Virus record (IMG/VR): IMGVR_UViG_3300045988_170943
Location: 64,001-128,000 of that record
Direction: 5' to 3' (one strand)
Origin: a virus
Length of the DNA: 64,000 nucleotides
Position 1 is the first letter of the stretch; every line of letters begins with the position of its first letter. This document shows, piece by piece, positions 965-59,264 of this stretch. Both the position numbers and the translations under genes were made by a program. A model generated the notes under the pieces. The model searched no databases. It had not been told where the DNA came from and saw only the letters and a list, made by a program, of their open reading frames with translations.

Positions 965-1759
965 TCAAGAATCTATGTCGTCTATACTAGGTATTTGCAT
1001 GTCTGGGATACCCCATGTTACCCAGTTCGACTTGATACTATATCCTAGTTCCTTGTTGACACGTGCTGCCACCCTTTCAGCGATGTTGTCAGCAGAACTC
1101 TTGATCTTGAAAAGCGACTCGTCCGACAGCATGCGATAAGTCAACCTGATGAAGTTCAGGATAGGAACTACATTTGCCTGAATACAATCACACTCGTTCC
1201 TCAGGATCATGTTTCCGTCATCACCCTCCTGTAGGCAGGGATGAATCATGGAGTAAGCAGTATCCTCAAGACAACGCTTCAGCACTGACACATCCTCATC
1301 AGAGAGATCACGAGGAAAGCCTGTGTACTCAGCATTGAACTTGAAAAGAGTCATGTCAGGAACATAAGCATCTACCTTAACACGGGCATGAAACCCTATG
1401 CTGACCAAACCATCCTTATCGAGCAGGTGAATTGCAATCTGGTCAGGTGATTCGTAGTCATCACTCACTCTCGCCTCAGCGACATAGAATGGGGGATTGA
1501 TGTTATTGACCTTGCACACATCCTCAAGATCAAGAACATTGGTAGGTAGAGTCACCTCAACATGATCCTCGTCCAACACATTGTCCTTGGCCCTGATGAC
1601 AGCATTCTGGATATTGTCTCCATCGCTGACTGAACTGGTGACTGATCCATCTGGCAGAGTAAACTCGATTGACAGAACCTCTCTTCCGTTCAAAGGAGTA
1701 AGGACACTGTTGAGGTACCCAGCGATCTCATTCATCTTTGTCTTTCCATTCTCAGTCAT
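965..1759 (-). CDS. hypothetical protein, paralog family C (with 52194..52955)
   Basis: ORF with a GAGAGAGG SD upstream. Shares motifs with the 52194 ORF: 'PL.GREV', 'LPT.VL', 'IHP', and a C-terminal 'GY..K/E..S.W'. Confidence 0.55.
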   Translation of the reverse strand: MTENGKTKMNEIAGYLNSVLTPLNGREVLSIEFTLPDGSVTSSVSDGDNIQNAVIRAKDNVLDEDHVEVTLPTNVLDLEDVCKVNNINPPFYVAEARVSDDYESPDQIAIHLLDKDGLVSIGFHARVKVDAYVPDMTLFKFNAEYTGFPRDLSDEDVSVLKRCLEDTAYSMIHPCLQEGDDGNMILRNECDCIQANVVPILNFIRLTYRMLSDESLFKIKSSADNIAERVAARVNKELGYSIKSNWVTWGIPDMQIPSIDDIDS

Positions 1760-20210: not shown

Positions 20211-20214
20211 TGTC

Positions 20215-21795
20215 TATTTATACCGTCAACCAGTCAAGTTCTTGAGAGGAGGCTCAACAGAAGTGCCTAGAACCATTGTGTCGCGCACGTATCCTCGTAC
20301 ACCGTATGCTGCGTTCAGCAAGACTGGTGAGCCCTTAGATCTTGATGTGGTACTGGCTGGTATCAGGAAGGATGCTGAACTGGTTGTCCACTATGCCCTA
20401 CAAGAGATGACTGAGCATAATCTCGCTCTGGTGACCTATTTTGACAGGTTCAAGCCTGCTGAGGCAGGGCGGAGAATGGGTCTGTTTCTCCCTAGCGAGG
20501 TGAAGAAGCGGTTCAAAAGTGGGGCCTCACGACTGGAGAAGATGTTCCAGGAGCAGGCCGTGACTGCCTTACGTTCCTGGGCCACCAGATCTGGGGTTGT
20601 CTCTGGGAACTACACTGGCTACGTCTCCGCTGGCTGGAAGAGAACAGTCGGGGACTCCAGGTCAAGGGCCCTACAGCCTCGGCTCGCCCTGTCTGCTACA
20701 GATAAGCAGTACAGGCGTATGAGTGTTACACCAGAACGTATTTCTCTTGACATGGTTGTTCAGGGCCAGTGGGTGACACTGCATTTTCCTGTTCCTCCAC
20801 AACTTTTAGAGCAGGGCTGTGAGCCAGGTGTTCCAGACATCTGGGTTGACAGTCAAGGTCGAGTGATGTTTGGTCTCCATGGCATGACAGATCCTGGCAG
20901 ACCGGAGTTCTCACCCAGGTACGTCATTGGCGTGGATGTGGGGGTCACTAACCCGGCCGCCTATGTTGTCTGGGACACTGAGAAGAGGGAAATTGTCGAG
21001 AAGTCTCTGCTTGATCAGAGGGCGCGGTCTCTGCATAACAAAATCAAACGCGGGGTTAGGCAAGTGTCCTCTCTACAGAGGAAGAACCGCCCCGAGGAGG
21101 CCGTGCCCCATAGGGCGCATCTATCGAATCGGCGTAAGGAACTGAGTATCCTTGTGGCTCAGGAGGTCGCGGACGCTGCCTGGAGGTATGGTAACGCCCT
21201 GGTGGTGTTTGAGGATCTGAGCCATATCAGGAACACCATGAGGTTTGGACGTTGGTTCCGTGGCGAGGTGCATAGAAGAACACGGGACATGGTTGAGGCT
21301 GACGGTGGACGAGTGATGAAGGTGAACGCGGCGTACACCTCGAAGAGGTGTCATGTCTGTCAGTCTGATCTGGACATGAGCGACTACAGTAGCCCTGTGT
21401 GTCACTCATGCAACATCACTCATCACCGGGACGTCAACGCGGCGGCGAATATTGCCCAGCGGGCCAACGTCAAGAAGGCTTGTCAGACCAGGATGCGGCA
21501 CACCACGAAGACGAAGCGTGTCCGCCGCTCCAAGTGCCGGATAAAACCACTGAAATATCCTGGTACGAAGAACAAACCAACACCCAAGGCGCCCCAGAAC
21601 CGACCTAAGACTCATGCTCACTCGTCTCTTCCAAAGATGGAGGTGAGTAAGGGGATGTGCCCCGCAGAGTCTAGGGTTTCTGCGGTGGACCACAGGGAGT
21701 GGTTTCAGACAACCAGCGGCACGACAGTTCTAAAGGAGAACCTATCTATTGGGAATACAATAGATGTGGTTTATCCTAAGGAATAGTCATACTCT
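20215..21795 (+). mobile_element. IS200/IS605-family tnpB-only (IS1341-like) element, copy 1 (about 1.58 kb)
   Basis: The boundaries come from the limits of nucleotide similarity to copy 2. The left end begins near 'ACCGT' about 40 nt upstream of the GTG start. The right end closes with 'CTAAGGAATAGTCATAC' 9 nt past the stop codon. There is no tnpA. Confidence 0.5.
20263..21786 (+). CDS. tnpB: TnpB-like RNA-guided endonuclease (RuvC-like + zinc finger), copy 1
   Basis: RuvC-I 'IGVDVGVTNPAAY', RuvC-II 'VVFEDLSHI', a zinc finger 'CHVCQ...CHSC' and RuvC-III 'HHRDVNAAANIAQRA'. The GTG start, with SD GAGAGGAGG, is identical in position and context to copy 2; the longer listed N-terminal extension was rejected. 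Confidence 0.8.
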   Translation: MPRTIVSRTYPRTPYAAFSKTGEPLDLDVVLAGIRKDAELVVHYALQEMTEHNLALVTYFDRFKPAEAGRRMGLFLPSEVKKRFKSGASRLEKMFQEQAVTALRSWATRSGVVSGNYTGYVSAGWKRTVGDSRSRALQPRLALSATDKQYRRMSVTPERISLDMVVQGQWVTLHFPVPPQLLEQGCEPGVPDIWVDSQGRVMFGLHGMTDPGRPEFSPRYVIGVDVGVTNPAAYVVWDTEKREIVEKSLLDQRARSLHNKIKRGVRQVSSLQRKNRPEEAVPHRAHLSNRRKELSILVAQEVADAAWRYGNALVVFEDLSHIRNTMRFGRWFRGEVHRRTRDMVEADGGRVMKVNAAYTSKRCHVCQSDLDMSDYSSPVCHSCNITHHRDVNAAANIAQRANVKKACQTRMRHTTKTKRVRRSKCRIKPLKYPGTKNKPTPKAPQNRPKTHAHSSLPKMEVSKGMCPAESRVSAVDHREWFQTTSGTTVLKENLSIGNTIDVVYPKE

Positions 21796-21815
21796 GCTTA
21801 CTACTCTAATCGGCC
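21632..21815 (+). ncRNA. putative ωRNA (TnpB guide RNA) scaffold overlapping the tnpB1 3' end, plus a variable 3' segment (candidate guide, about 21796..21815)
   Basis: A roughly 95-nt block is about 93% identical to copy 2, whereas the rest of the gene is about 75% identical. Hairpins 'ccgcaga...tctgcgg' and 'accac-aggga-gtggt' (copy 2: 'accaca-atg-tgtggt') are preserved by changes that maintain pairing. Similarity stops abruptly after 'GTCATAC'. Confidence 0.5.
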
Positions 21816-21978
21816 GCTTGTCCGTGTTTGTGTCAGCCGCTACGGGCAGGATTGGTACAGTGTTGACACTGCGGACGGAGGCGTTGCGGGCATCAAAAAG
21901 GCTTTCAAGGATGCGATGGAGATCGAAGAGTACATCCACACTGGAGGCAACAACTAGAACTCCCGCACTGGCGGCAAA

Positions 21979-24057: not shown

Positions 24058-24555
24058 TCAGCGGTATGTGAACTTAGTGGGTATTTTTGCTGGCTTGTAG
24101 TCAGAGAAAGTCACTACTCCTTCAGCAACCATGACGTGAGGATCGCTGCTGGACACGGAGTACTTGGAGACGTCCAGATTGTCTTCTCCTAGCAGAGTGA
24201 ACTCAAGAGAGAAGGTAATGCCATGATCGTCCATGAACTTCTTGAACGTCTGAAGTTCTGATGCCAGTTCATATGCCTTCCCATCTTCGTATGAGACCTC
24301 GTAATCAAGCCCCTTGATATAGTCGCCAGTAAAGGTCAGTTCAGGACGGAACTCAATAACATACGTCAGGAATGAATCTTTTAGTCGATTCTCAATCAGT
24401 TCATTCCAGTCCTTCAGTGAGATCAGCCGACCACTGAAATCAGAAGTGAATGAGACGTCATCAATGCTGGAATAGTACCCCATATCGCACCACGCTTTCT
24501 GTGAGACTGTTGGATGCAGGTTGCTCTTTACCCTATCACATGCTTCGTCCGTCAA
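24058..24555 (-). CDS. hypothetical protein
   Basis: 165-aa ORF; the only minus-strand gene inside the + block. Confidence 0.45.
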   Translation of the reverse strand: MTDEACDRVKSNLHPTVSQKAWCDMGYYSSIDDVSFTSDFSGRLISLKDWNELIENRLKDSFLTYVIEFRPELTFTGDYIKGLDYEVSYEDGKAYELASELQTFKKFMDDHGITFSLEFTLLGEDNLDVSKYSVSSSDPHVMVAEGVVTFSDYKPAKIPTKFTYR

Positions 24556-26690: not shown

Positions 26691-27025
26691 CCACCCTGCT
26701 CTGACAGTAGCGGAGTAGGACTTGCTGCATGACCAGTTGGCGGATCCAACAATGTTCAGGATAAAGGTAGAACAGCCTTGTAACGTACAGCAAGCGTGTG
26801 TCTTCTGTTGACTTCAGCGGTTGGGTGTAGTATGATTGGGAGTTGACCAACCAATAGGATACAGGGAGCAGGAGTGAGGCATGGTTGCACTGATTCTAGA
26901 TGAGTTCTGGGTAGCGGCAAAATCAAAACAGGGGGAGGCAGAAATGTCGAGCCTGCAAGAGTATCTGGACTCTTGCAGACCCACAATTAAACTGAAGCAC
27001 ACCACCAAGAGGGAGGGTAATAGGA

Positions 27026-29442: not shown

Positions 29443-30093
29443 ATGACACGTGTAAACGTCCACAACACTACCGACTGGGATCGTGTTGACTGGAGTAACC
29501 CAGATCTGACTGAAGTGGTTGTTGACATTGATGACCCATATACGGTTATCGATGGCACCGGTAGATGTGACACGAACATTGGTATCGCGGTTGTTGTTGA
29601 TTCCAGGATTGGGGTGGTGAAGAACGTGGGCCATCTTGTTGTCAAACCGCACCCCATTGTCAGATTTCATAAAGATAATCTACGCATTAAAAACTGTACT
29701 GCCGTAAACGTTAATGATGGGGTGATTGTCACTAAAGTTACTGGTTCGAATCTTTTCATGGATGGCTCATCCCTGGTGCTTGTCGCAGAGAATTGCGATG
29801 TCATGTCCATGTCCGGTGATTCTCAAATCAACAAGGCCATTGATTCTGTGATTGACTCCATGATCGATAAGTCAACTATCTGTTTCGCAGATAAGAACAC
29901 CTGTATCAAGTTGATGGAAGATATGTCACAGGTGGATCGTCTTGAAGGGCACATCCTCATGCTTGACGGGTGCGCTTGTGTCGAGAAGATGACGAATGCA
30001 GCAATTGTTGAGACAGCCAGGTGCCGTACCATCGTTCGTAACGTAGAAGACGGTTCCAAGGTGGAGGTAGCGTATGACTATTCCTTAGAATGA
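29443..30093 (+). CDS. paralog family B protein (repetitive, beta-solenoid-like)
   Basis: Shares an N-terminal W..V.W motif, degenerate ~17-residue 'V.G.A.V..V' repeats and a C-terminal 'KVEVA' with the 32970 and 49163 ORFs. Its last 16 nt overlap the tnpB2 stop region. Confidence 0.5.
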   Translation: MTRVNVHNTTDWDRVDWSNPDLTEVVVDIDDPYTVIDGTGRCDTNIGIAVVVDSRIGVVKNVGHLVVKPHPIVRFHKDNLRIKNCTAVNVNDGVIVTKVTGSNLFMDGSSLVLVAENCDVMSMSGDSQINKAIDSVIDSMIDKSTICFADKNTCIKLMEDMSQVDRLEGHILMLDGCACVEKMTNAAIVETARCRTIVRNVEDGSKVEVAYDYSLE

Positions 30094-30222
30094 ACCCCAC
30101 CCACAGTATTAGCGGATAGGTTCGCCTTTGGAATTGTCGTGCCGCTGGTTGTCTGAAACCACACATTGTGGTCCACCGCAGAAACCCTAGTGTCTGCGGG
30201 GCACATCCCCTTACTCACCTCC
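30050..30222 (-). ncRNA. putative ωRNA scaffold of tnpB2, plus a candidate guide (about 30052..30071) lying inside the 3' end of the convergent 29443..30093 CDS
   Basis: This is the same hyperconserved block as at tnpB1 (reverse complement of 30072..30222). The sequence 3' of 'GTCATAC' is unrelated to copy 1. Confidence 0.45.
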
Positions 30223-31645
30223 CTAGAAGGTGTAACAGAGGGGTGAATCTTTGGCCTGTTCTGTGGGGCCTTAGGTGTTGGTTTGTTCTTCGTACCAGGA
30301 TGCTTGAGCGGCTTTGCATGGCACTTGGATCTTCTGATGCGCTTCGTCTTCGTGGCGTGCCGTCTCCTGGTCTGGCAGGCCTTGGCATGGTTGGCTCGCT
30401 GAGCAATATTCGCCGCAGCATTCAGGTCACGGTGATGGGTGATGTCGCATGAATGGCATACGGGATTACTGTAGTCGCTCATGTCCAGGGTAGCCTGACA
30501 CACATGACACCTTTTCGAGGTGAATGCCGCGTTCACTCTGAGGACCCTACCTCCGTCGGACTCAACCATGTCCCGAGTACGCCTGTGGACCTCGCCACGA
30601 AACCAGCGGCCGAACTTCATGGTGTTCTTGATGTGAGACAAGTCCTCAAAGGAGACGATGGCATTGTCATAACGCCAGGCTGCGTCCGCGATCTCCTGAG
30701 CAATGAGGATACTCAGTTCCTTACGACGATTCGACAAGTGAGCCCTGTGAGAAACCGCTTCCTCATCCTTGCCTTTTCTCTTCAAGGATGTTACTTGTAC
30801 CTGCCCGCGCTTGATCTTGTTGCTCAGTGATCTTGCTCTTTGATCGAGTAGAGATTGCTCAACAATCTCCTTATTCTTGGTGTCCCATACCACATAGGCG
30901 GCAGGGTTGGTAACTCCAACATCTACACCAATGATATAGCGCTCAGAGAACTTTGGTCGGCCAGGATCGGTTTTCCCATGAAAACCAAACATCACACGGT
31001 TGTTCTTGTCAACCCAGATGTCTGGGACACCAGGTTCACAACCATCCTCCAACAACTGCGGAGGCACCGGAAAATACAGTACCACCCACTGACCTTGAAC
31101 AATCACCTTCAACTCAATACGATCCGACTTAACAGTCATCTCTCTATATTGCCTATCGGCAGCAGAAAGAGATAATCTAGGTTGCAGAGATGATGGTTTT
31201 GAGTCCCTAACTGTCCTTTTCCAGCCGGTAGAGACATAACCACTATAGTTTTGGTTAACGGCCCCTGCTCTGGTAGCCCAGGACCTTAGATTGGTGACTA
31301 CTTGCTCTCTGAACATACGTTCAAATCTGGAACTACCGCTCCTGAACCGCTCCTTCACCTCAACTGGAAGTTTCAGGCCCATCATATATCCTGCACCTGA
31401 TGGTTTAAGTCTGTCGAAGTAGGTCACCAGCGCAAGGTTCTGCTCGGTCATCTCCCGCAAAGCATAGTGGGCGACCAGTTCAGCATCCGCTCTGATGCCG
31501 TCCAGGACTTCCTTGAGGTTTAGAGGATCGCCACTCTTGCTGAACGCAGCATACGGTGTGCGAGGGTACGTGCGAGACACAGCGCCTCTAGGCACTTCTG
31601 GTGAACCTCCCCTCAAGGACTTGACCGGCTAACGGTGTGTGTGAT
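30072..31645 (-). mobile_element. IS200/IS605-family tnpB-only element, copy 2
   Basis: About 75% nucleotide identity to copy 1 across the ORF and about 93% in the 3' RNA module. Left-end similarity runs up to about 31636. The flanks differ completely. The right end abuts and overlaps the family B gene. Confidence 0.5.
30078..31595 (-). CDS. tnpB: TnpB-like RNA-guided endonuclease, copy 2
   Basis: The same RuvC-I/II/III and zinc-finger motifs as copy 1. The GTG start is preceded by the SD GAGGGGAGG. Confidence 0.8.
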   Translation of the reverse strand: MPRGAVSRTYPRTPYAAFSKSGDPLNLKEVLDGIRADAELVAHYALREMTEQNLALVTYFDRLKPSGAGYMMGLKLPVEVKERFRSGSSRFERMFREQVVTNLRSWATRAGAVNQNYSGYVSTGWKRTVRDSKPSSLQPRLSLSAADRQYREMTVKSDRIELKVIVQGQWVVLYFPVPPQLLEDGCEPGVPDIWVDKNNRVMFGFHGKTDPGRPKFSERYIIGVDVGVTNPAAYVVWDTKNKEIVEQSLLDQRARSLSNKIKRGQVQVTSLKRKGKDEEAVSHRAHLSNRRKELSILIAQEIADAAWRYDNAIVSFEDLSHIKNTMKFGRWFRGEVHRRTRDMVESDGGRVLRVNAAFTSKRCHVCQATLDMSDYSNPVCHSCDITHHRDLNAAANIAQRANHAKACQTRRRHATKTKRIRRSKCHAKPLKHPGTKNKPTPKAPQNRPKIHPSVTPSREVSKGMCPADTRVSAVDHNVWFQTTSGTTIPKANLSANTVGGVHSKE

Positions 31646-32007
31646 AAAAAAGGATTAGTGGAGAGCACCAGCACGAGCAGGATAACGTAACAATACTGGG
31701 CCACAGTGGAATAGACACTGACGGGTTCTGGGTGGGAGAGGTTCTTGTTGAAGACCTAGACGGCAAGAACAATGGTGACACCTTGGGTGGGGAAAGCAAC
31801 CTGTTGACAGTGTATCCACCATATGCTGTCAACCACAGCAGCAAGACGGTTCCCTACAGTTTTAACAAGGAGGATCTGTTGAGTATTGGGTTCTCAGATG
31901 TTGTCGTAAAACGTAGCAGCAAGTGAGTGATGCCACTTGAATCGCATTAGCGACTTCAGAGAGTGTGCCACCTAATCACAATACCAGCAGTGAGGTTAGG
32001 GTAAGAA

Positions 32008-41929: not shown

Positions 41930-43132
41930 TCATTGTCTATGATACTGGTCACTTATTTCCAGTCGCCCAATGAAGTCGCTGTATGGCACTGGTCTTGGTG
42001 CGTCACCGTCGTTGTTGAACACAACCGGTTCTGTCTCGATAGTGCCGTCGGCGTGCATGCTTGCCAGGTTCTCTGCGCTGCGTGACCTGAACCGTGTCGT
42101 GTCCTCTGGTGTGTTGCTCTGGTTGACTGATGCAGGGAGAATACGGCCACCGTTCCCCTCCCCAGATACCGTGTACTTGTCCATGCCTCTCCTGTACCTG
42201 GAGGTGGCTCTTTTAGTGGATGTTTCTGGTGTGATGTCAACGAACACTGCCCTCAGGCTGTAGCCGCCCTTCTTGAGCCTACCAACCCTGGAGTCCATGG
42301 AGGAGCGTTTCGACATTGTGCCGTCCAGGATGATGTTTTTCTTCTCCCTGATAGCCCGGTCCATGATGATGCTTGAGATATGTGAGGCTTCATCGTGGGC
42401 AAGTGTGGAGCACTCCATAGGGGTGAGCCCACGCAAGGTCGGGATCATGCCCCTCTCGGCCATGATCTCTTTGATGTCGTCAGGGTTGACAGTGATGTAC
42501 TTATCGGTGTCGATGTTGAGGTACCTGGTCAGGACAGTGGTCTTGCCCGCACCACCCATACCACCTGATATGATCGCTCTCCCTTCACAGGGCGTGTCTT
42601 CGTGCTGCTTGAATACGTCATCTATGATCTGCTGCTGTAGTTTGCGGCGTTCTGGCGTGTAGACGGGCCCAGCGGATATCTTCGTGGAGTACGTGTCACT
42701 GGTCTTCAGTCCGTCACGTATCGCCTGAGAGAGGGCTCTTTCTGCGTACTGATGCCTCAGGGACATATCTAGCCCAGAGATGGCCTGGTGGCTGTCGCAT
42801 GCTTCCTGGAGTACTCGCTCGCACTCACGTCCTTGTTCCACCAAGGACATGCTCTCCCACTGCTTCCCTCGCTCTGGGCTGTTGTCTCCGGCCCCAACAG
42901 GTTTCTGTGTCGCTTTCCTCCCCTTGGAGGAGGCTGAAGCGAAGAGATCCTTACCCATGTACTCTGCCTTGATGGTGTCGATCTTCTGTTGCGCCTCCTG
43001 TGGGGTGGATGCGTACACATGGGGCTCACCATCTTTGGTCCTTGGGCACTGACGGAATTCAGCATTACACTCAACGGCTACCCCATCACTACTGCGAGCA
43101 TGCCATTTCTTCTTATTTCTGTGTCCAGTCAC
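41930..43132 (-). CDS. P-loop kinase (zeta-toxin / polynucleotide-kinase-like)
   Basis: Walker A 'GGMGGAGKTT' followed by 'NIILDGTMSKR', a zeta-toxin/AAA_33-like arrangement. The N-terminal region is basic. Confidence 0.5.
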   Translation of the reverse strand: MTGHRNKKKWHARSSDGVAVECNAEFRQCPRTKDGEPHVYASTPQEAQQKIDTIKAEYMGKDLFASASSKGRKATQKPVGAGDNSPERGKQWESMSLVEQGRECERVLQEACDSHQAISGLDMSLRHQYAERALSQAIRDGLKTSDTYSTKISAGPVYTPERRKLQQQIIDDVFKQHEDTPCEGRAIISGGMGGAGKTTVLTRYLNIDTDKYITVNPDDIKEIMAERGMIPTLRGLTPMECSTLAHDEASHISSIIMDRAIREKKNIILDGTMSKRSSMDSRVGRLKKGGYSLRAVFVDITPETSTKRATSRYRRGMDKYTVSGEGNGGRILPASVNQSNTPEDTTRFRSRSAENLASMHADGTIETEPVVFNNDGDAPRPVPYSDFIGRLEISDQYHRQ

Positions 43133-43484: not shown

Positions 43485-44183
43485 ATGACACTGCGTGGAG
43501 ACATGTTTGTCTACGCCGACAGGTGTAGTACGAACATTCACTCGCCACAGTTCTATGGAACTCTTAGTGGCTTCATTGCCTCAGGGAAAGACCAGTACTT
43601 CAAGATCATAGATGAGTACAAGGCGAACTTTCCTGTACGTCACTATTTCATGAAGACGTTCAGGAAGAGTTACGATCTTGAACGTATGATTCGTGACCTG
43701 AGTGGTGTCATGAGCGAGGATGTGTTCTTCTCTTACCTGGGTCCTGTGCGCCCTATCTTCCCTGAAGCCACTAGGGATGAGATGGAGAAGTTGGCGGCAG
43801 TCATGTTCACGACCACGAAGGACGCCCTAGCCGTCCTCCTAAAGGCCGTGGTTGAAGGCGGCGACAAGTACGGGTCCCTGGCTGACGATGTTATGGTTGT
43901 TCGTGACGATACCCAGTACCATAAGATCACACGCACGGGCCGCATCTTCATTGACGCCCGAGCCTCTGGTAGGGCTGAGTTGAAAGCGTACTGGACAACA
44001 GGTGTAGACGAATCGACCATTGTCACTTATAATGACCAGTATGGCGAGGCTGGTTGGGTCACCTGGTATGAACGAGTAATGGGCGACCTGAACCTGAAGA
44101 GTGAACGACCATGGGAGCGGGTCGTTGATGACTGGATTGACAGGAAGGCCGAGGACGCTCGTGCAACAGAAGAGCCAAACTGA
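43485..44183 (+). CDS. hypothetical protein
   Basis: The SD 'ggagaaagtagc' precedes the ATG. Confidence 0.55.
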   Translation: MTLRGDMFVYADRCSTNIHSPQFYGTLSGFIASGKDQYFKIIDEYKANFPVRHYFMKTFRKSYDLERMIRDLSGVMSEDVFFSYLGPVRPIFPEATRDEMEKLAAVMFTTTKDALAVLLKAVVEGGDKYGSLADDVMVVRDDTQYHKITRTGRIFIDARASGRAELKAYWTTGVDESTIVTYNDQYGEAGWVTWYERVMGDLNLKSERPWERVVDDWIDRKAEDARATEEPN

Positions 44184-44606: not shown

Positions 44607-44972
44607 ATGGACACTGAGGCTAAGGTTCGCTCGATCACGAAGGCCATCGAGTCTGCTCTTGTGGGCCAGACGATTGACACATTTTCTGTTGGAGAGCAGG
44701 TCGTGGAGGATGGTAGTGTCCACTCCTCTGGTGTTATCTCCTTTGGCGAGGATGCTCATATCATCCAGGTTTCTGGGGCTCGTCTTGATGTCAAGGCCAC
44801 CCCTCTGGCTGGGGCTACCGTGACCAAGGTGGATTACGTTACGATGCCCATGGACGGGTACCTGGGCTGGAGCATCAAGGGCTACCAGGGGGATGGTCGA
44901 GCCACCGATATGGTGTTCGAGATTTGGAACGCTGGTGGCGAGGATGTTCAGTATGCTGTGTCGATGATCTGA
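44607..44972 (+). CDS. hypothetical protein
   Basis: The SD 'gaaaggaagacaa' precedes the ATG. Confidence 0.55.
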   Translation: MDTEAKVRSITKAIESALVGQTIDTFSVGEQVVEDGSVHSSGVISFGEDAHIIQVSGARLDVKATPLAGATVTKVDYVTMPMDGYLGWSIKGYQGDGRATDMVFEIWNAGGEDVQYAVSMI

Positions 44973-46197: not shown

Positions 46198-47172
46198 ATG
46201 AGAATTGACTTGAAAGATGTGCTAGACCTGGATGAAGACAGCAGGGCCAAACTAGAGGAGTACAGGAGGAAGCGTGCGTTCGCCCCTGCCGCCTATGTTG
46301 AGGCTAAGACGGCAGCACTTGGCGACTATTGCAAGAACAATGACATTGACTCGCTTACCGTCCTGATCTCTGGTGGTATTGACAGTGCTGTCGTGGCTGG
46401 GATCGCCAAGGAAGTCTCCAACAGGTACGGTACTGGGGTTCACATGGTCACCATCCCTGCAACCAACAGCCGGGGGGTGACCAGGCAGGATGAGACCGTG
46501 GTACTGGCTCAAGAACTGGCTGACAACCTTGGTGAGACCCTTGATGTTCTTCCCTTTGATGGGGTTGTTGATGAGGCTGTTAGCCTGTGTGACCTGGAGG
46601 ATAGCCAGTGGGGGACGGGTCAGGCCGTCTCCTACCTGAGGACAGCGGTGGCTTACACCTATGTGACCAAGTGCTGGAGCGTGGGCGACAAGACCCTCTT
46701 GGTGGGGACAACCAACATGGATGAGGGGGCATACATTGGTTTCTTCGGCAAGGCCAGCGACGGCATGGTTGACATCCAGCCCATCAGCGACCTGCACAAG
46801 AGCGAAGTGTACCAGGTCGCCAACTACCTAGAGATCCCCGCATCTATCATCCAGGCTACACCTCAGGGGGACATGTACCATGGTGGTAAGGATGAGCAGA
46901 TTTTCGGGTGCACCTATGACTGTGTTGAGTTGTTCTACGCGACCCATATTGGCAGGTACGTGGATTCTCCTGTGAGTGAGCAGTGGAAACGAGTTGTGGA
47001 CAACATTGAGGATCTTCACCAGTACAACACACACAAGTACCTTGGTGGTTCACCTGCCGTCCACATGGACGTGATGCCATATGCGGGCACTTTTGGGTCG
47101 TGGTCCTACCAGAACATTGTAGAGTCTAGGAACATTCTTTCGTCTCACCTGACAAGCAAACAGGCACTATGA
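46198..47172 (+). CDS. nadE: NAD+ synthetase (NadE-like PP-loop amidotransferase)
   Basis: PP-loop 'ISGGIDS'. NadE signature 'GTTNMDEGAYIGFFGKASDGMVDIQPISDLHKSEVYQVANYLEIP', compared with 'GTDN.SE...GYFTKYGDG..D..PI.DL.K..V' in known NadE enzymes. Confidence 0.6.
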   Translation: MRIDLKDVLDLDEDSRAKLEEYRRKRAFAPAAYVEAKTAALGDYCKNNDIDSLTVLISGGIDSAVVAGIAKEVSNRYGTGVHMVTIPATNSRGVTRQDETVVLAQELADNLGETLDVLPFDGVVDEAVSLCDLEDSQWGTGQAVSYLRTAVAYTYVTKCWSVGDKTLLVGTTNMDEGAYIGFFGKASDGMVDIQPISDLHKSEVYQVANYLEIPASIIQATPQGDMYHGGKDEQIFGCTYDCVELFYATHIGRYVDSPVSEQWKRVVDNIEDLHQYNTHKYLGGSPAVHMDVMPYAGTFGSWSYQNIVESRNILSSHLTSKQAL

Positions 47173-48569
47173 CAACGGGAGAGAAGGACTCACTGGGAGT
47201 ACCTGTTGCTCTGAGTGACCCAATGTTTCAGGCGTTCGCGGATACTCACCCGAGCAAGGATCTGGTTCGTTATGGGTACTACGATGACGGTGTGACCTCA
47301 CCGGACTGGGGACCTGCTACTACCCCCATCCCTGTGGGTGCTGTGTGGGCTTGTGGGGTCTCTGAGCGGCCTGCTGTGCTGGTGATGACTGGTGCCATGG
47401 ATCCGATGCACGACGGCCACGCTGAGGCCCTGGAGATAGCCAGGAGAAGGTTGGAGGGGCTGGGGGTCCAGATTGTTCACACTCACGTCATACCAGATAG
47501 TCATGTGTACGCGAGAATGAAGCGGCCTATGGGGGCTGGGAGCGATGAGGAGCGGGCCGCCAGTGTCAGGTCTTTGGGTTACGTGTGCGATGAGGACTGC
47601 ATGAGGTACCCTGGGAGACCGAACTACACGAGCATCCTCCTGCATGTCCAGCACAAGTGGCAGCAGCACGGTGTGCACCCAGTCGTATTCAACGTGGTTG
47701 GTTCAGACAACGCCCTGTTCGCTGAAGTGGCAGCAGCATACGATCCGGCCGGTTTCGGTACCGTTGTTGTGGAGACAGGCCACCAAGAAAAACCCCCCGT
47801 ACAGGAGGACGCTGGCCGGAACATCCTAGTATGCGACAGAGAAGGGCGAAAGTATGCGTCCTTGTCGTCAACCACTGTGAGAAGCGGTAACCACAGTAGT
47901 GATTTGCCTGTCATGTATATTAAAGACGACCTCGACTACTACACCACCAACAGGAAGTGCCATGACGAACTCATTAACGCACTAGAGGGCATGTTCACCT
48001 CATACGGGTACCAGGTGAAGGTCGGCCACTACCGGACACAAGTCAAAAAACTGGTCAAACAGACAGCATCCAAGCACTCCCAGGAAATAGAGAATGGTGC
48101 GATCACAGTATCCTTAGATCGACACATCCCAGCACAGGTCAGGTTCCCCATACACCGACTATTCCAGTCAGACACCCTACAGAAAATGGGGTACCTCCCA
48201 GACAGGCACCTTCAAGTACATCCAGGACAGAAGTTCATCCTGCTGGACGACGACATGGACACTGGCAACGGGATGAGATTCGTGAAACACATCATCAACA
48301 CCCAAGGTGGAGAAACCATCGGTGTTGAAACCATCTACCAGGACCCAGGGCGCGAGTTCGACGTTCTGGACGCTAGCGACGTCACCACTATTGACGGCAC
48401 AGGGCTCGTAGTCCAGTCATCTGACCTCACCATGAGCAGGATCCCCTACCTGCACACGTTCCTTGACCTGCAACGATTCTCCAGCGTGCCAGACCGTCAG
48501 AAAGAAGCGTTCACTCACCAGGTCACAAGCATTCTGAAGAGGCACAAGATCGGCACATATGAGAGGTAG
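47169..48569 (+). CDS. bifunctional nucleotidyltransferase (NMNAT-like HxGH) + type I phosphoribosyltransferase / PRPP-synthetase-like domain
   Basis: N-terminal 'VMTGAMDPMHDGH' matches the (T/H)xGH cytidylyltransferase/NMNAT motif. C-terminal 'KFILLDDDMDTGNGM' matches the PRPP-binding motif of type I PRTases/PRS. The start overlaps the nadE stop (ATGA), indicating translational coupling. Confidence 0.5.
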   Translation: MTTGEKDSLGVPVALSDPMFQAFADTHPSKDLVRYGYYDDGVTSPDWGPATTPIPVGAVWACGVSERPAVLVMTGAMDPMHDGHAEALEIARRRLEGLGVQIVHTHVIPDSHVYARMKRPMGAGSDEERAASVRSLGYVCDEDCMRYPGRPNYTSILLHVQHKWQQHGVHPVVFNVVGSDNALFAEVAAAYDPAGFGTVVVETGHQEKPPVQEDAGRNILVCDREGRKYASLSSTTVRSGNHSSDLPVMYIKDDLDYYTTNRKCHDELINALEGMFTSYGYQVKVGHYRTQVKKLVKQTASKHSQEIENGAITVSLDRHIPAQVRFPIHRLFQSDTLQKMGYLPDRHLQVHPGQKFILLDDDMDTGNGMRFVKHIINTQGGETIGVETIYQDPGREFDVLDASDVTTIDGTGLVVQSSDLTMSRIPYLHTFLDLQRFSSVPDRQKEAFTHQVTSILKRHKIGTYER

Positions 48570-54750: not shown

Positions 54751-55020
54751 CTACTCAACCCGCTCATAGGTCTCAAAGAAGATGTCACGGCGGCAGCAAT
54801 AGTGCTCACCTCGCACACCCTCAATGACGTACCCACCAAAGGCCCCATGCATTGGACCCTCCAGTGTCGGAATCGTGATACCGCCATCCACGACCTCGCC
54901 ACCAACCCAATCAGCGACCTCCTGGGCGTTACCCTCAGTCAGTTCAACCGCTTTGATCCTCGTTGGACGCTTCTGCCAGCACTCAATCTTCATACTCTGT
55001 ACTCTTCCCCTAGATTTCAT
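54751..55020 (-). CDS. hypothetical small protein
   Basis: 89-aa ORF. Confidence 0.45.
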   Translation of the reverse strand: MKSRGRVQSMKIECWQKRPTRIKAVELTEGNAQEVADWVGGEVVDGGITIPTLEGPMHGAFGGYVIEGVRGEHYCCRRDIFFETYERVE

Positions 55021-57249: not shown

Positions 57250-57700
57250 GGCTCAGTACTTCAGGCCGAAGATGCGTTTTCGGTCATCCTTACGGAACAT
57301 CTTAGGCCGATGGAACCCGAACTTGTAAACCTCAGCACCAGTGTCGTTGGTGGCTGTGATAACACCGTCAGACAGGATGTTGTATGCTCGCTCCGCCCCA
57401 GTGAGACCCGAGATGTTGACACTCGCTGACTAGGTTGGAGATCCCCTAGAATCTAGGGTTTCTCTCACCATCATCAGCGTCGCCTCGGTTTTTATTTCCG
57501 AGGTACCGGTGTGCCCCTGGATTCTACTCAGGGCAGTGACCGGTTTCGACTGCCGCGTAACAGCCGAACTTCGCATTTCCTTTCTCTGACGAAGCAGAGA
57601 ACGCATTCTCTCTCGTGTTCGAGATGAAGGAGATGCCGCACGCAGAGCAATCTCTCTGGATGCTGAGACATCCCGGTTCAACTCAAAACCACAGGTAGTG
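57250..57700 (-). ncRNA. candidate ωRNA region of TnpB3 (structured; overlaps the low-complexity C-terminal read-through of the ORF)
   Basis: The ORF tail after RuvC-III is S/R/T-rich low complexity. Palindromes 'ccctagaatctaggg' and 'cctcgg-tttttattt-ccgagg' lie in the 180-nt gap before the next gene. Confidence 0.25.
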
Positions 57701-58962
57701 CAGGTGCCAACTCGGGTAGATGTGTTGTTTCTGGTTCTATCTCCGCAGCGAGAACAGGTTCTAGAGGTGTCTTTAGCACTCACCTTGGTTACTTTAAGGC
57801 CGTAGCGCTTAGCCGTATTCTCAATGCGACTCTGAATCTCCGCATGAGGCCAACGACCTCCCTGAGCATCCAGCCAGGACAGGTTCTCTAAAGAAACGTG
57901 AGCGTCGTTCCGATCTGCGATCTCTACTACCTGGCTGGCGATGCACTGACTGATCTCGCGCTTGATACGAGTGGCCTTAGCACTGACTCGCCTGGCTTCT
58001 TCTCTGAGAACTTGGGCGTGCTGATCTCGATTGTGCTTCTCGCAGAGGTTCGCTCGCTCGTACAGATGAGCGGCTAGATCGCGGCGTTTCTGTTCCTTCT
58101 TAACTAAGGCTCCGAGTCGTCTCTTATAGTTGGCGTGATATGGGGCAGACCTGTGCTTACTCTTAGGATCGATGACTGTAGCGACGAACGGCTCGACCTT
58201 ACCCAGATCAACACCCGTGATTATCTTGGTCTGGCTGGCATCTATTTCGTGCTCAATAGTGATGTCGAAGACGACCTGTCCCTTGTTGTTCAGGCGGATA
58301 GTTGGACGACAGATCTTACCTTCACTGAATCTCTCGCTGTTCTCTGGTAGCCTGAGATAGAGTCTGGTGAGACCATAAGTAGGCGTCTTAACCTGAACAG
58401 TGACACTTAGAGGATCGTTGTCATCTCTTGATGCTTTGGGCGCGAAGTGAGTGTCACAGACCGCCAGGTTCAGTTTAGCGCTCACGCCTGGTAGAGACGC
58501 TTTCCTTTCGCCCTTGATGTGATAACGTCTCAGGTGAGAGCAGACCATGCCACTGGTTGGTTGCGGGGCATCAGGATAGGTGTTCTTGTAATGAGATAGT
58601 ATCTGGTCCGGTTTTGTCGTGCTCGGGTGAGTACTCATTACTTGGAACAGGCCAACACTCATGGCGTACAGTTCCAGAGCACTCACTACGTTTGAGACCA
58701 GCATCTCGTTCATATTGTGCTTCTGAAACGAGAAGCCGTAGCGACTCAGCCTCTTCCTGCCCCAGGAGTTCAGAGAACCAGTCGGCCTGTCACCTTGCAG
58801 AGCCTTGATCGCTAAATCATGAAACTCACGGCTGGCAAGCACCTCTCGTTCTGACTCGGCCATCCAGGCGACCATCTGAGCCAGATCGCGTTCAACCTGC
58901 TCCACGTCAACCCCGCCGTCAGTGGTGAACCTGTGCCTGGTTACTGCGTCGTAGTACTTCAC
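57430..58962 (-). CDS. tnpB: TnpB-like RuvC/zinc-finger nuclease, distinct family (copy 3)
   Basis: RuvC-I 'ITGVDLGKVEPFVATV', RuvC-II 'VSLENLSWL', a zinc finger 'CSRCG...CTTCG' and RuvC-III 'NRDVSASREIALRA'. The GTG start is preceded by the SD AAGGAGG. The functional C-terminus probably ends before the listed stop. Confidence 0.7.
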   Translation of the reverse strand: MKYYDAVTRHRFTTDGGVDVEQVERDLAQMVAWMAESEREVLASREFHDLAIKALQGDRPTGSLNSWGRKRLSRYGFSFQKHNMNEMLVSNVVSALELYAMSVGLFQVMSTHPSTTKPDQILSHYKNTYPDAPQPTSGMVCSHLRRYHIKGERKASLPGVSAKLNLAVCDTHFAPKASRDDNDPLSVTVQVKTPTYGLTRLYLRLPENSERFSEGKICRPTIRLNNKGQVVFDITIEHEIDASQTKIITGVDLGKVEPFVATVIDPKSKHRSAPYHANYKRRLGALVKKEQKRRDLAAHLYERANLCEKHNRDQHAQVLREEARRVSAKATRIKREISQCIASQVVEIADRNDAHVSLENLSWLDAQGGRWPHAEIQSRIENTAKRYGLKVTKVSAKDTSRTCSRCGDRTRNNTSTRVGTCTTCGFELNRDVSASREIALRAASPSSRTRERMRSLLRQRKEMRSSAVTRQSKPVTALSRIQGHTGTSEIKTEATLMMVRETLDSRGSPT

Positions 58963-59264
58963 AGGCTCACCTCCTTCTTGACGAGTTGATTAGCATAGAT
59001 GTGTGTATTGTAACACAGAGTGAGTGATGCTACAAGTCAAGGAATTGTAAAGGACTAGTGTGACTGCGGGCAACAGTGTTGCGGTACGCCTAATCAAAGA
59101 AGCCCTCAACGTATGGTATCCGCGATTCATCAGTAAGTACCTTTTCGTCATACTTCCTTCTCCTTCGGATTGGTCTCTTGGTTGGCTCTGCTAGTTGTTC
59201 TCTCCAACAATAGTGGAGGTTCCCGCCCTTGTTCAGAGGTAGTGGTCTTCCCCGTTTCCCCTTG

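Follow-up and report, generated by a model that had tools for sequence, protein, structure and literature searches.

Two TnpB-like elements in a megaphage-like contig

The 64,000-nt stretch of viral DNA analysed here (positions 64,001 to 128,000 of IMG/VR record IMGVR_UViG_3300045988_170943, hereafter the window) belongs to a phage-like contig of ~419-420 kb and carries two copies, W1 and W2, of an element that contains a tnpB-like gene. Each locus is probably a TnpB-only element of ~1.65 kb that is not autonomous, and it represents a divergent TnpB lineage so far met only on very large phage-like contigs. The features of the two copies are as follows, in coordinates of the window.

20213..21795, plus strand: element copy 1 (W1), 1583 nt, from the left triplet TCT to TCATAC + TCT
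20263..21786, plus strand: W1 tnpB-like open reading frame (ORF), 507 aa, GTG start
21639..21792, plus strand: W1 omega-RNA-like scaffold, 154 nt, overlapping codons 459-507 and the stop codon and terminating in UAGUCAUAC
21793..21795, plus strand: W1 junction triplet TCT (NCT in 70/72 sites); the identical triplet begins the left end at 20213-20215
21796..21815, plus strand: W1 candidate guide GCTTACTACTCTAATCGGCC, of inferred length, which is also the start of a phage-gene remnant
21796..21957, plus strand: C-terminal remnant of a phage gene, end coordinate approximate
30069..31715, minus strand: element copy 2 (W2), left TCT at 31715-31713, TCATAC at 30077-30072, GCT at 30071-30069
30078..31595, minus strand: W2 tnpB-like ORF, 505 aa, GTG start, catalytic residues intact
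31596..31715, minus strand: W2 left end, TCT-ATTCCACTGTGGCC...CTCCACTAATCC, a decayed -10 box TTTTTTATCAC, then the 5′ untranslated region (5′UTR)
30072..30222, minus strand: W2 omega-RNA-like scaffold, 151 nt
30049..30068, minus strand: W2 candidate guide ACCTCCACCTTGGAACCGTC, with an empty allele in the sister genome M
29443..30093, plus strand: 5′ part of a split phage gene, its final 7 codons and stop codon supplied by the W2 right end
31714..31926, plus strand: 3′ part of the phage gene split by W2

The limits of W1 are given by the sister genome M (IMG/VR UViG_3300008363_000089, 394 kb), homology to which ends at 20212 and starts again at 21796. In the left-end alignment W1 has kept only TCTATT, followed by an internal deletion of ~70 nt, and because of this deletion it lacks the family promoter described below. 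W2 is full length, measuring 1644 nt to TCATAC in a family of 1635-1674 nt. The GTG start of both ORFs is preceded by a GGAGG ribosome-binding site (RBS), and the two proteins are full-length paralogues that are 77% identical. Copy 1 DNA was aligned to the reverse complement of copy 2, segment by segment, with the following identities.

20263-21632, ORF body: 72.3% (990/1370)
21606-21638, indel-rich variable linker: 39%
21639-21727, block: 93.3% (83/89)
21728-21775, segment between block and anchor: 69%
21776-21792 in W1 and 30088-30072 in W2, anchor CTAAGGAATAGTCATAC: 100% over 17 nt
21796-21860, flank: 35%, which is chance level

An initial annotation of the window had reported that the 3′ end of the two genes is conserved in excess of the ORF body. 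This was confirmed, with 93.3% identity in the block and 100% in the anchor against 72.3% in the body, and the segment-wise alignment gave no sign of uniform identity along the element. Differences inside the block sit in hairpin loops or preserve pairing, again as annotated. Similarity halts abruptly after the anchor, at TCATAC and three further bases, and the tail beyond is copy-specific flank, which is the layout of an omega-RNA. In the 64-kb window exactly two matches were found for the anchor, and likewise for a 30-mer of the block, where 0-0.1 would be expected.

The 3′ end of the gene is constrained as a structured RNA

A protein-based search of IMG/VR gave 18 loci on contigs of ~97-398 kb. 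The 3′ module was present in 17/17 of the loci that include the 3′ end of the gene, terminating in GGAATAGTCATAC, and DNA-pattern scans extended the set to 87 distinct module sequences from related contigs of 200-530 kb. Across these 87 copies the 3′ 151-160 nt adopt one conserved fold. Its first part is a three-way junction in which GUGCC/GGCAC closes the hairpins CCGCAGA/UCUGCGG and GGACCAC/GUGGUUU, and its second part is a long bulged stem (GAC/GUC, UCC/GGA, GAACC/GGUU) that carries a distal hairpin. Paired cells of the alignment are compatible with pairing in 97.0% of cases, as opposed to 37-44% after a shift of the partners by 1-3 columns. Of the cells, 37 are compensatory; one pair, for example, is UA in 35 sequences and CG in 29, and the observed covariation score was attained by none of 500 shuffles. 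Where only one partner of a pair has changed, the result is in every case compatible with G-U pairing, and this on the tnpB sense strand only; 85/87 sequences have G-U at pairs 49:73 and 50:72. The minimum free energy of the W1 module is -55.2 kcal/mol (z -3.7) and that of W2 -52.7 kcal/mol (z -2.3). Folding therefore bears out the stable and conserved secondary structure proposed in the initial annotation, with covariation in addition. A covariance model built from the 87 sequences scores W1 at 172 bits and W2 at 179 bits; run with filters off, it found only these two in the window and no further or stand-alone scaffold.

The same region behaves unusually as coding sequence. Between W1 and W2, codons 458-505 show a nonsynonymous rate (dN) of 0.20 and a synonymous rate (dS) of 0.097, the latter 19-fold lower than in the ORF body. 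Among same-amino-acid pairs from 19 full ORFs, the fraction using different codons is ~0.45 along the ORF, falls to 0.02-0.05 in codons 458-476 and is ~0.2 in codons 477-504. Moreover, third codon positions are invariant in the tail across the 87 copies, and the conservation runs through the stop codon to TCATAC. Taken together, this comparison shows that what constrains the last ~150 nt of the predicted transcript (GGAGGUGAG...UAGUCAUAC) is an RNA structure on the sense strand and not the protein. A scaffold at the 3′ end of the gene combined with a flank-derived guide was thus found at the level of comparative sequence, and we consider it likely that each locus encodes a TnpB with an omega-RNA that uses the flank as its guide.

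Two further observations were made on the module. RNAalifold on the 87 sequences gives an alternative, long-range pairing of the 5′ GGAGGUGAG segment with downstream ACC/UCC. The invariant start of the module (21639..21657 in W1, 30222..30204 in W2) reads GGAGGTGAG-N9-ATG, which resembles an RBS followed by an in-frame start at M465.

The protein is a divergent member of the TnpB/Cas12f superfamily

In W1 numbering, both proteins have a RuvC triad of D225/E317/D390 and a zinc finger, C363-x2-C366...C380-x2-C383. Both proteins match PF07282 (the Cas12f1-like TNB domain) in Pfam (53.3 and 49.3 bits; cutoff 26.3). None of 58 aligned homologues, with identities down to 21%, departs from the triad, C363 or C380, and C366 is present in at least 90% of them. 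An AlphaFold (AF2) model on the 58-homologue alignment reached a predicted local distance difference test score (pLDDT) of 84.6 and a predicted template-modelling score (pTM) of 0.74, with residues 453-507 predicted to be disordered (pLDDT 32-47). Over ~420-460 aligned columns, Foldseek matched this model to AsCas12f (E 1e-15) and to ISDra2 TnpB 8h1j (E 3e-11), and also to ISFba1 TnpB and the mimivirus Fanzor2; the TnpB structures matched were 8h1j, 8iaz and 8exa. The model and these matches give the overall WED-REC-RuvC fold. By sequence search, the best solved relatives reached only E ~3e-7. In a HMMER search of all 1.84 billion cluster representatives, only 434 relatives were found at E<=1e-3, and alignments to distant protein homologues end at about residue 445-470.

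Selection on the ORF body was estimated from codons 8-450 of W1 and W2, which gave dN 0.16 and dS 1.89 (dN/dS ~0.09); the median dN/dS over 163 pairs was 0.096. By this measure the ORF body is under strong purifying selection. The initial annotation had described the elements as tnpB-only RNA-guided nucleases, and had named loss of the RuvC D/E/D residues as a sign of a TldR-like role. Both copies keep the triad, and the protein belongs to the TnpB/Cas12f superfamily as a divergent, nuclease-competent member and not as a TldR-like dead variant.

Element ends share an NCT triplet and a preceding G

The right end common to 72 distinct insertion sites reads ...TAGTCATAC and then NCT, beyond which the sequences are unrelated. 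The triplet is TCT at 44 sites, GCT at 21 and CCT at 6, with others found once each. The left end of the family, as aligned in 19 copies, starts ~150 nt upstream of the start codon. From the outside inwards it consists of a flank ending in G, NCT-NYTCTACTGTAGTC-YRRCATTGTTAC, CTCCACyrATCC-TGTGTTATAAT-ACACACATACC and the 5′UTR. The TGTGTTATAAT-ACACACATACC segment is an extended -10 box, and the 5′UTR carries a GTCAAG..CTTGA hairpin and an RBS. W2 retains the hairpin and an RBS (GGGGAGG) in this alignment. Its -10 box has decayed to TTTTTTATCAC, with no consensus sigma-70 site remaining in the W2 left end, and the box of W1 is decayed or deleted.

These alignments change several details of the initial annotation. 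The left end of ~40 nt that it placed from ACCGT onwards is merely the 5′UTR portion of the ~150-nt left end. The TTTAT said to end both left flanks, and offered there as a target-adjacent motif (TAM), is out of register between the copies, lying 7 nt upstream of ACCGT in copy 2. As a TAM it was rejected, since the 19 aligned left ends show it to be a decayed TGTGTTATAAT box, a relic of the element's own promoter; the conserved base of the flank is G. We also considered the TGTGTTAYAAT box as a general phage promoter and rejected it, its sole exact match in the window lying upstream of the other TnpB-like gene described below.

Both ends were recovered at 25 sites. The flank base at -1 is G in 25/25 and that at -2 is A (15) or T (8), with no conservation of the left flank beyond -2. 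The left and right triplets are concordant at 17/25 sites, where 10.5 would be expected, and only 107 of 20,000 permutations reach this value. As read from these alignments, the junction signature is (A/T)G, NCT-element-TCATAC-NCT, guide. The candidate TAM is (A/T)G-NCT, with the guide running from 21796 in copy 1 and from 30068 in copy 2. The guide start of the initial annotation (TCTGCTTAC...) would then be probably 3 nt too early, and the guide would begin GCTTACTACTCT... instead. An alternative that would fit the same alignments has the TAM ending at the G and the guide taking in the triplet.

The left end also contains a short palindrome, CTAC-T-GTAG, whereas the right end lies within the RNA module. 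The presence of NCT on both sides suggests a recombinase-type crossover or a short duplication rather than IS605 chemistry. Crossover by a recombinase within a 3-nt core common to target and element junction would explain the concordant triplets.

Occupied and empty alleles

M is collinear with the window from 12.5 to 36.8 kb, at 83-91% identity, and lacks both copies. At the copy 2 site M has a single uninterrupted ORF of ~340 aa, of which W2 replaces 188 nt (63 codons). With slashes marking the junctions, M reads CTGAG/GCC/ACCTCCACCTTGGAACCATC and the window TCATAC/GCT/ACCTCCACCTTGGAACCGTC, and the leading 17/17 bases of the copy 2 guide match M. At the copy 1 site M has two paralogous genes of ~265-310 aa. 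All that is left of them in the window is a C-terminal remnant of the second, and copy 1 stands where M has the rest of that gene and its paralogous neighbour (~1.5 kb). Here M reads TTCAG/TCC/GCTTACTACTCTGATG within an intact gene of ~265 aa and the window TCATAC/TCT/GCTTACTACTCTAATC, and the leading 13/13 bases of the copy 1 guide match. For each window copy, the left and right junctions map to two different WG/KCC positions of M, 188 nt and ~1.5 kb apart respectively. Therefore, each element was accompanied by an adjacent deletion.

Among all fetched loci, 29 independent sites have both occupied and empty alleles. The empty allele reads ...G/KYY/guide-match, with G at -1 in 28/29 sites, and the match to the flank of the occupied allele begins directly after the triplet. 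This polymorphism occurs with flanks that are 97-99% identical. Four clean insertions with identical left flanks were found (L128/L141, L088/L083, L062/L023 and L001/L039). In these the triplet CCT became CCT...CCT (L128/L141), GTT became GCT...GCT twice, and GCG became GCT...ACT. Empty alleles often have KCC or GTT where occupied ones have NCT, a matter of single transitions; as a speculation, such alleles could be escape variants. The bases at guide positions 4-28 show fewer mismatches than those farther out, a pattern that we do not use as evidence because BLAST alignments were required to begin near the junction, which biases it.

The initial annotation had proposed reprogrammed or homing guides. 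Homing guides fit these comparisons, as sister genomes without the element carry the guide match at the same place. Reprogrammed guides were not supported, as no guide was seen to be aimed beyond its own site; allowing up to 3 mismatches, neither matches the window anywhere other than at its own locus.

The window also contains empty sites of the family, at 1120-1142 (-), 24148-24167 (-), 43973-43992 (-), 44869-44888 (+) and 54809-54830 (-). Each of these five sites follows a G and a KYY-type triplet, and they are occupied by family-1 elements in L121, L080, L096, L078 and L091/L118, respectively. A further sequence at 26765..26776 (-), AAG/GCTGTTCTA/CCT/TTATCC, consists of the first 9 nt of the left end (GCT-GTTCTA) and a triplet. 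It coincides with a full element in locus L112, M has a plain empty site there, and it looks like the footprint of a lost element. The window thus samples at least 8 insertion sites of the population.

Age of the copies and recombination between them

DNA identity between copies at different sites has a median of 74% and reaches 88-92% in a few pairs. Where different genomes have a copy at the same site, element and flanks have mostly diverged together. In four such pairs (L109/L150, L004/L013, L068/L108 and L098/L130) the 400-nt flanks are 90-100% identical and the element bodies only 77-91%, and L150 is a chimera, with left flank and body as at the L008 site and a right flank as at the L109 site. 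This mismatch between body and flank at the same site suggests recombination or gene conversion among dispersed copies. Loci L001 and L003, which lie on two contigs of sample 3300045988, differ by the inversion of a ~1.9-kb segment bounded by the element. In L003 an inverted 20-nt right-end fragment, AGAGTATGACTATTCCTTAG, adjoins the left end, so that right ends point outward on both sides. The chimeric sites and the inversion indicate that dispersed copies are also substrates for recombination and genome remodelling.

No source of transposase was found in the DNA searched. Y1 (PF01797), serine-recombinase and DDE domains were absent from the 83 other ORFs of the window, which covers 64 kb of a ~420-kb genome; the absence of a tnpA noted in the initial annotation was thus upheld for Y1 domains. 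Likewise, no longer, autonomous element was seen in 1.42 Mb of related DNA, where 43/43 left ends reach a right end at 1.6-1.7 kb. The 64 kb contain no tandem or spaced repeats of the kind found in a CRISPR array. An IStron was considered and rejected, as no group I intron match was found in the window, copy 2 is antisense to the gene that it splits, and 63 codons of that gene are missing.

Genome context and a second TnpB family

The initial annotation called the genome phage-like. It is megaphage-like, with related IMG/VR contigs of 200-400 kb and ENA contigs of up to 540 kb. Of the 83 other ORFs in the window, 74 have no Pfam match. The matches found include NAD synthase, a radical SAM enzyme and RNA ligase, a phosphoribosyltransferase/cytidylyltransferase-like ORF at 47169..48569 and a zeta-toxin/AAA_33 kinase at 41930..43132; no tRNA was found in the window. 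This set looks like the NAD-salvage and RNA-repair auxiliary genes of a huge phage. GenBank phages gave no DNA match, and the best protein match was 27% identical. The module pattern had 0 matches in GTDB, searched as one genome per bacterial or archaeal species, and therefore provides no lead to a host or prophage.

A second TnpB-like gene lies in the same window, with the following features.

57430..58962, minus strand: second TnpB-like ORF, within 57420..59090, 510 aa, 26% identical to the first family, PF07282 at 59 bits
57432..57420, minus strand: right end of the second family, TAGTCAGCGAGTG
59017..59005, minus strand: promoter box of the second family, TGTGTTACAATAC

This second family has the same layout as family 1 and its own conserved 3′ module of ~190 nt, in which a covarying hairpin occurs in the variants CCUCGG.., CCUCCAG.. 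and CCUCAAA... Its right end, ...CCAACCTAGTCAGCGAGTG, is sharp, with unrelated flanks beyond, and its left end reads TTGACT-17-TGTGTTATAAT, the same promoter box as in family 1. Eighteen loci of this family were found on the same megaphage contigs, with at most 4 per contig, and the family-1 RNA model does not match them.

Comparison with known systems

ISDra2-type TnpB systems (IS200/IS605 OMEGA, including IS1341-type TnpB-only elements) resemble the loci described here in most aspects of their organisation. Both have proteins of 400-500 aa with WED, REC, RuvC and zinc-finger domains, a D-E-D triad and a catalytic E ~46 residues before the zinc finger. In both, the scaffold is drawn from the tnpB 3′ end and the right end, the first bases of the right flank form the guide, and the guide matches the unoccupied site; moreover, no transposase lies inside the element. 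However, sequence similarity in the Foldseek alignments is ~15%, the NCBIfam score is below its cutoff and the RNA falls outside Rfam. The left flank is (A/T)G here, whereas ISDra2-type systems have a T-rich motif of the TTAC/TTGAT type. Further differences are the NCT triplet on both sides, the lack of any Y1 TnpA seen, the extended -10 promoter in the left end and a C-terminal tail of ~50 aa that exists only to encode RNA. IS200/IS605 elements insert 3′ of a T/A-rich tetra- or pentanucleotide, the TAM, without duplicating the target, and in its place we find G at -1 and NCT on both sides. We therefore do not retain the IS605-type label of the initial annotation: neither a Y1 TnpA nor a T-rich target motif was found in the DNA searched, and the NCT triplet is repeated at both ends.

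Elements of the IS607 family have a serine recombinase TnpA, insertion at GG, AGGAG/GAGGG TAMs and a RAGATH-18-type omega-RNA (PMC13565253). Like the present elements, they have a G ending the left flank and a short sequence common to target and terminus, suggestive of recombinase crossover; TnpB-only derivatives are common among them, and relatives occur in viruses. In contrast to IS607, A or T stands at -2 here and NCT forms the repeated unit, there is no RAGATH-18 match in Rfam, and no serine recombinase or resolvase domain occurs among the window ORFs. Cas12f (type V-F) gives the best structural matches (AsCas12f, E 1e-15, template-modelling score ~0.5-0.65) and is similar in size and domain order. 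It differs in that the window has no CRISPR array or repeat, and the guide here comes from the flank and is joined to the 3′ end of a single scaffold. T4-like and jumbo phages have free-standing homing endonuclease genes, which are similar in another respect, being nuclease genes dispersed between or inside phage genes, with presence/absence between sister phages and the allele without the gene as their target. They also share the mosaic boundaries, deletions and replacement of neighbouring DNA. Unlike these, recognition here would be by an RNA guide and not by protein, and the elements have defined ends. On the sequence evidence, this is a genuine TnpB and omega-RNA arrangement in a megaphage. 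It belongs to a new, divergent lineage whose end and target signature is unusual.

Proposed mechanism and alternative explanations

In known TnpB systems, the omega-RNA is cut from the tnpB transcript, its guide comes from the right flank, the empty site is cleaved and repair proceeds from the occupied copy (PMC13565253). If the present elements work like ISDra2 and other TnpBs, an omega-RNA would be processed here from the 3′ portion of the tnpB mRNA, and its 3′ end, ~16-20 nt of flank, would serve as the guide. The ribonucleoprotein would cut guide-matching DNA beside (A/T)G-NCT, that is, the unoccupied allele, in a co-infecting sister phage or at the site after excision. Recombinational repair from the occupied allele would then copy or restore the element, resulting in homing or retention. 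The occupied locus has ...CATAC-NCT and not ...WG-NCT before the guide, a difference that could spare it from self-cleavage. We infer that the elements would persist and spread by RNA-guided homing between sister phages, or by retention after excision.

Several observations weigh against this interpretation. Rfam gave no match for the whole window at the gathering threshold, nor for 21500-21900 at E<=10, and the scores for NCBIfam guided_TnpB NF040570 (57.9 and 58.7 bits) lie below the cutoff of 100 and cover the C-terminal half only. The loci added by DNA pattern were selected through sequence inside the module, so that the lack of variation in the columns concerned is in part built in; most helices do not vary and are hence uninformative, the covariation coming mainly from the distal stem. 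Neither window copy has a good promoter of its own. As judged by their divergence, copies at different sites are old, and recent transposition was not seen. Many empty alleles with a perfect WG-NCT and guide match persist. The candidate TAM differs from the right-end terminus only in the base before NCT, which is a thin basis for telling self from non-self. The steps beyond a conserved RNA structure and a nuclease-competent protein are proposed by analogy.

With regard to the conserved 3′ block, it might primarily be a DNA signal, the right end being recognised by a transposase or recombinase, for instance as single-stranded hairpins as in IS200/IS605. The block adjoins the element boundary, TAGTC occurs in both ends (CTGTAGTC left, AATAGTCATAC right), and right end and omega-RNA overlap in known elements (PMC13565253). 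We nevertheless regard this as improbable, given a constrained region of ~150 nt with multiple helices, far beyond the 20-30 nt subterminal hairpins of IS200/IS605, the many G-U pairs, which can form on the tnpB sense strand but not on its complement, and a left end without comparable structure. The last 15-20 nt likely have a dual role as DNA and RNA. It is far less probable still, and we give it almost no credence, that the tail is conserved as protein, either as the peptide EVSKGMCPA..WFQTTSGTT or as an internal ORF starting at M465 behind GGAGG. The tail dN of 0.20 exceeds its dS of 0.10, against a dS of 1.9 in the body, third positions are invariant in the 87 copies, the tail is predicted to be disordered (pLDDT 32-47) and is not kept in distant homologues, and conservation extends past the stop to TCATAC. 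These points stand against a tail peptide that is fairly conserved among close copies and the GGAGGTGAG-N9-ATG that resembles an RBS and start, from which gene callers gave a 43-aa product (P0264).

Two further alternatives concern what the nuclease does. A nuclease-dead or repurposed TnpB, acting like TldR as a regulator that binds a neighbouring phage gene through its guide, would suit guides that lie inside phage coding sequence and copies that are long-lived at fixed sites. We consider it very unlikely, as the RuvC D/E/D residues are intact in both copies and invariant in the family, and as the guide is directed at the junction of the element itself, next to a motif unlike that of empty alleles. 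The copies may instead be fixed phage genes in which transposition has ceased and whose guides persist as a means of cutting the matching allele in competing sister phages, a form of interference competition or marker exclusion. This is possible, though we would not favour it. It agrees with the lack of a transposase among the 83 other window ORFs and of an autonomous copy among the 43/43 left ends in 1.42 Mb, with the strong purifying selection on the protein, with the co-divergence of most same-site pairs and their flanks, and with W1 having lost most of its left end while its ORF and RNA module are still intact. On the other hand, end sequences including NCT are conserved in nearly all copies, which would be needless for a non-mobile gene; there are at least 72 different sites, clean presence/absence polymorphism occurs, and insertions have destroyed phage genes. 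Such a function is compatible with homing, the main difference being who benefits.

More broadly, and as a tentative proposal, RNA-guided homing as set out above could make this megaphage-restricted lineage, together with the second TnpB lineage, a case of RNA-guided gene drive or competition between co-infecting sister phages. Such a system would use a non-canonical (A/T)G-NCT motif and a mode of colonisation that leaves NCT on both sides, unlike either IS605 HUH chemistry or IS607 GG crossover. It would also remodel genomes through gene replacement, deletions between WG-KCC sites, inversions and swaps of element bodies.

TnpB/omega-RNA systems are the ancestors of Cas12 and are in use as compact genome editors. 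The loci described here add a divergent nuclease-RNA pair with a candidate recognition motif that is not T-rich, and an end structure (NCT on both sides, with G before it) that fits neither transposase family known to partner TnpB. TnpB genes are frequent in phages (PMC12607003). Their role there is largely unexplored, and this locus is a well-sampled natural system in which to study it, with at least 72 insertion sites, 29 pairs of occupied and empty alleles in sister genomes of ~400 kb and two co-resident TnpB lineages. With a defined scaffold, guide/target pairs and a candidate TAM, RNA-guided homing between phages would be directly testable.

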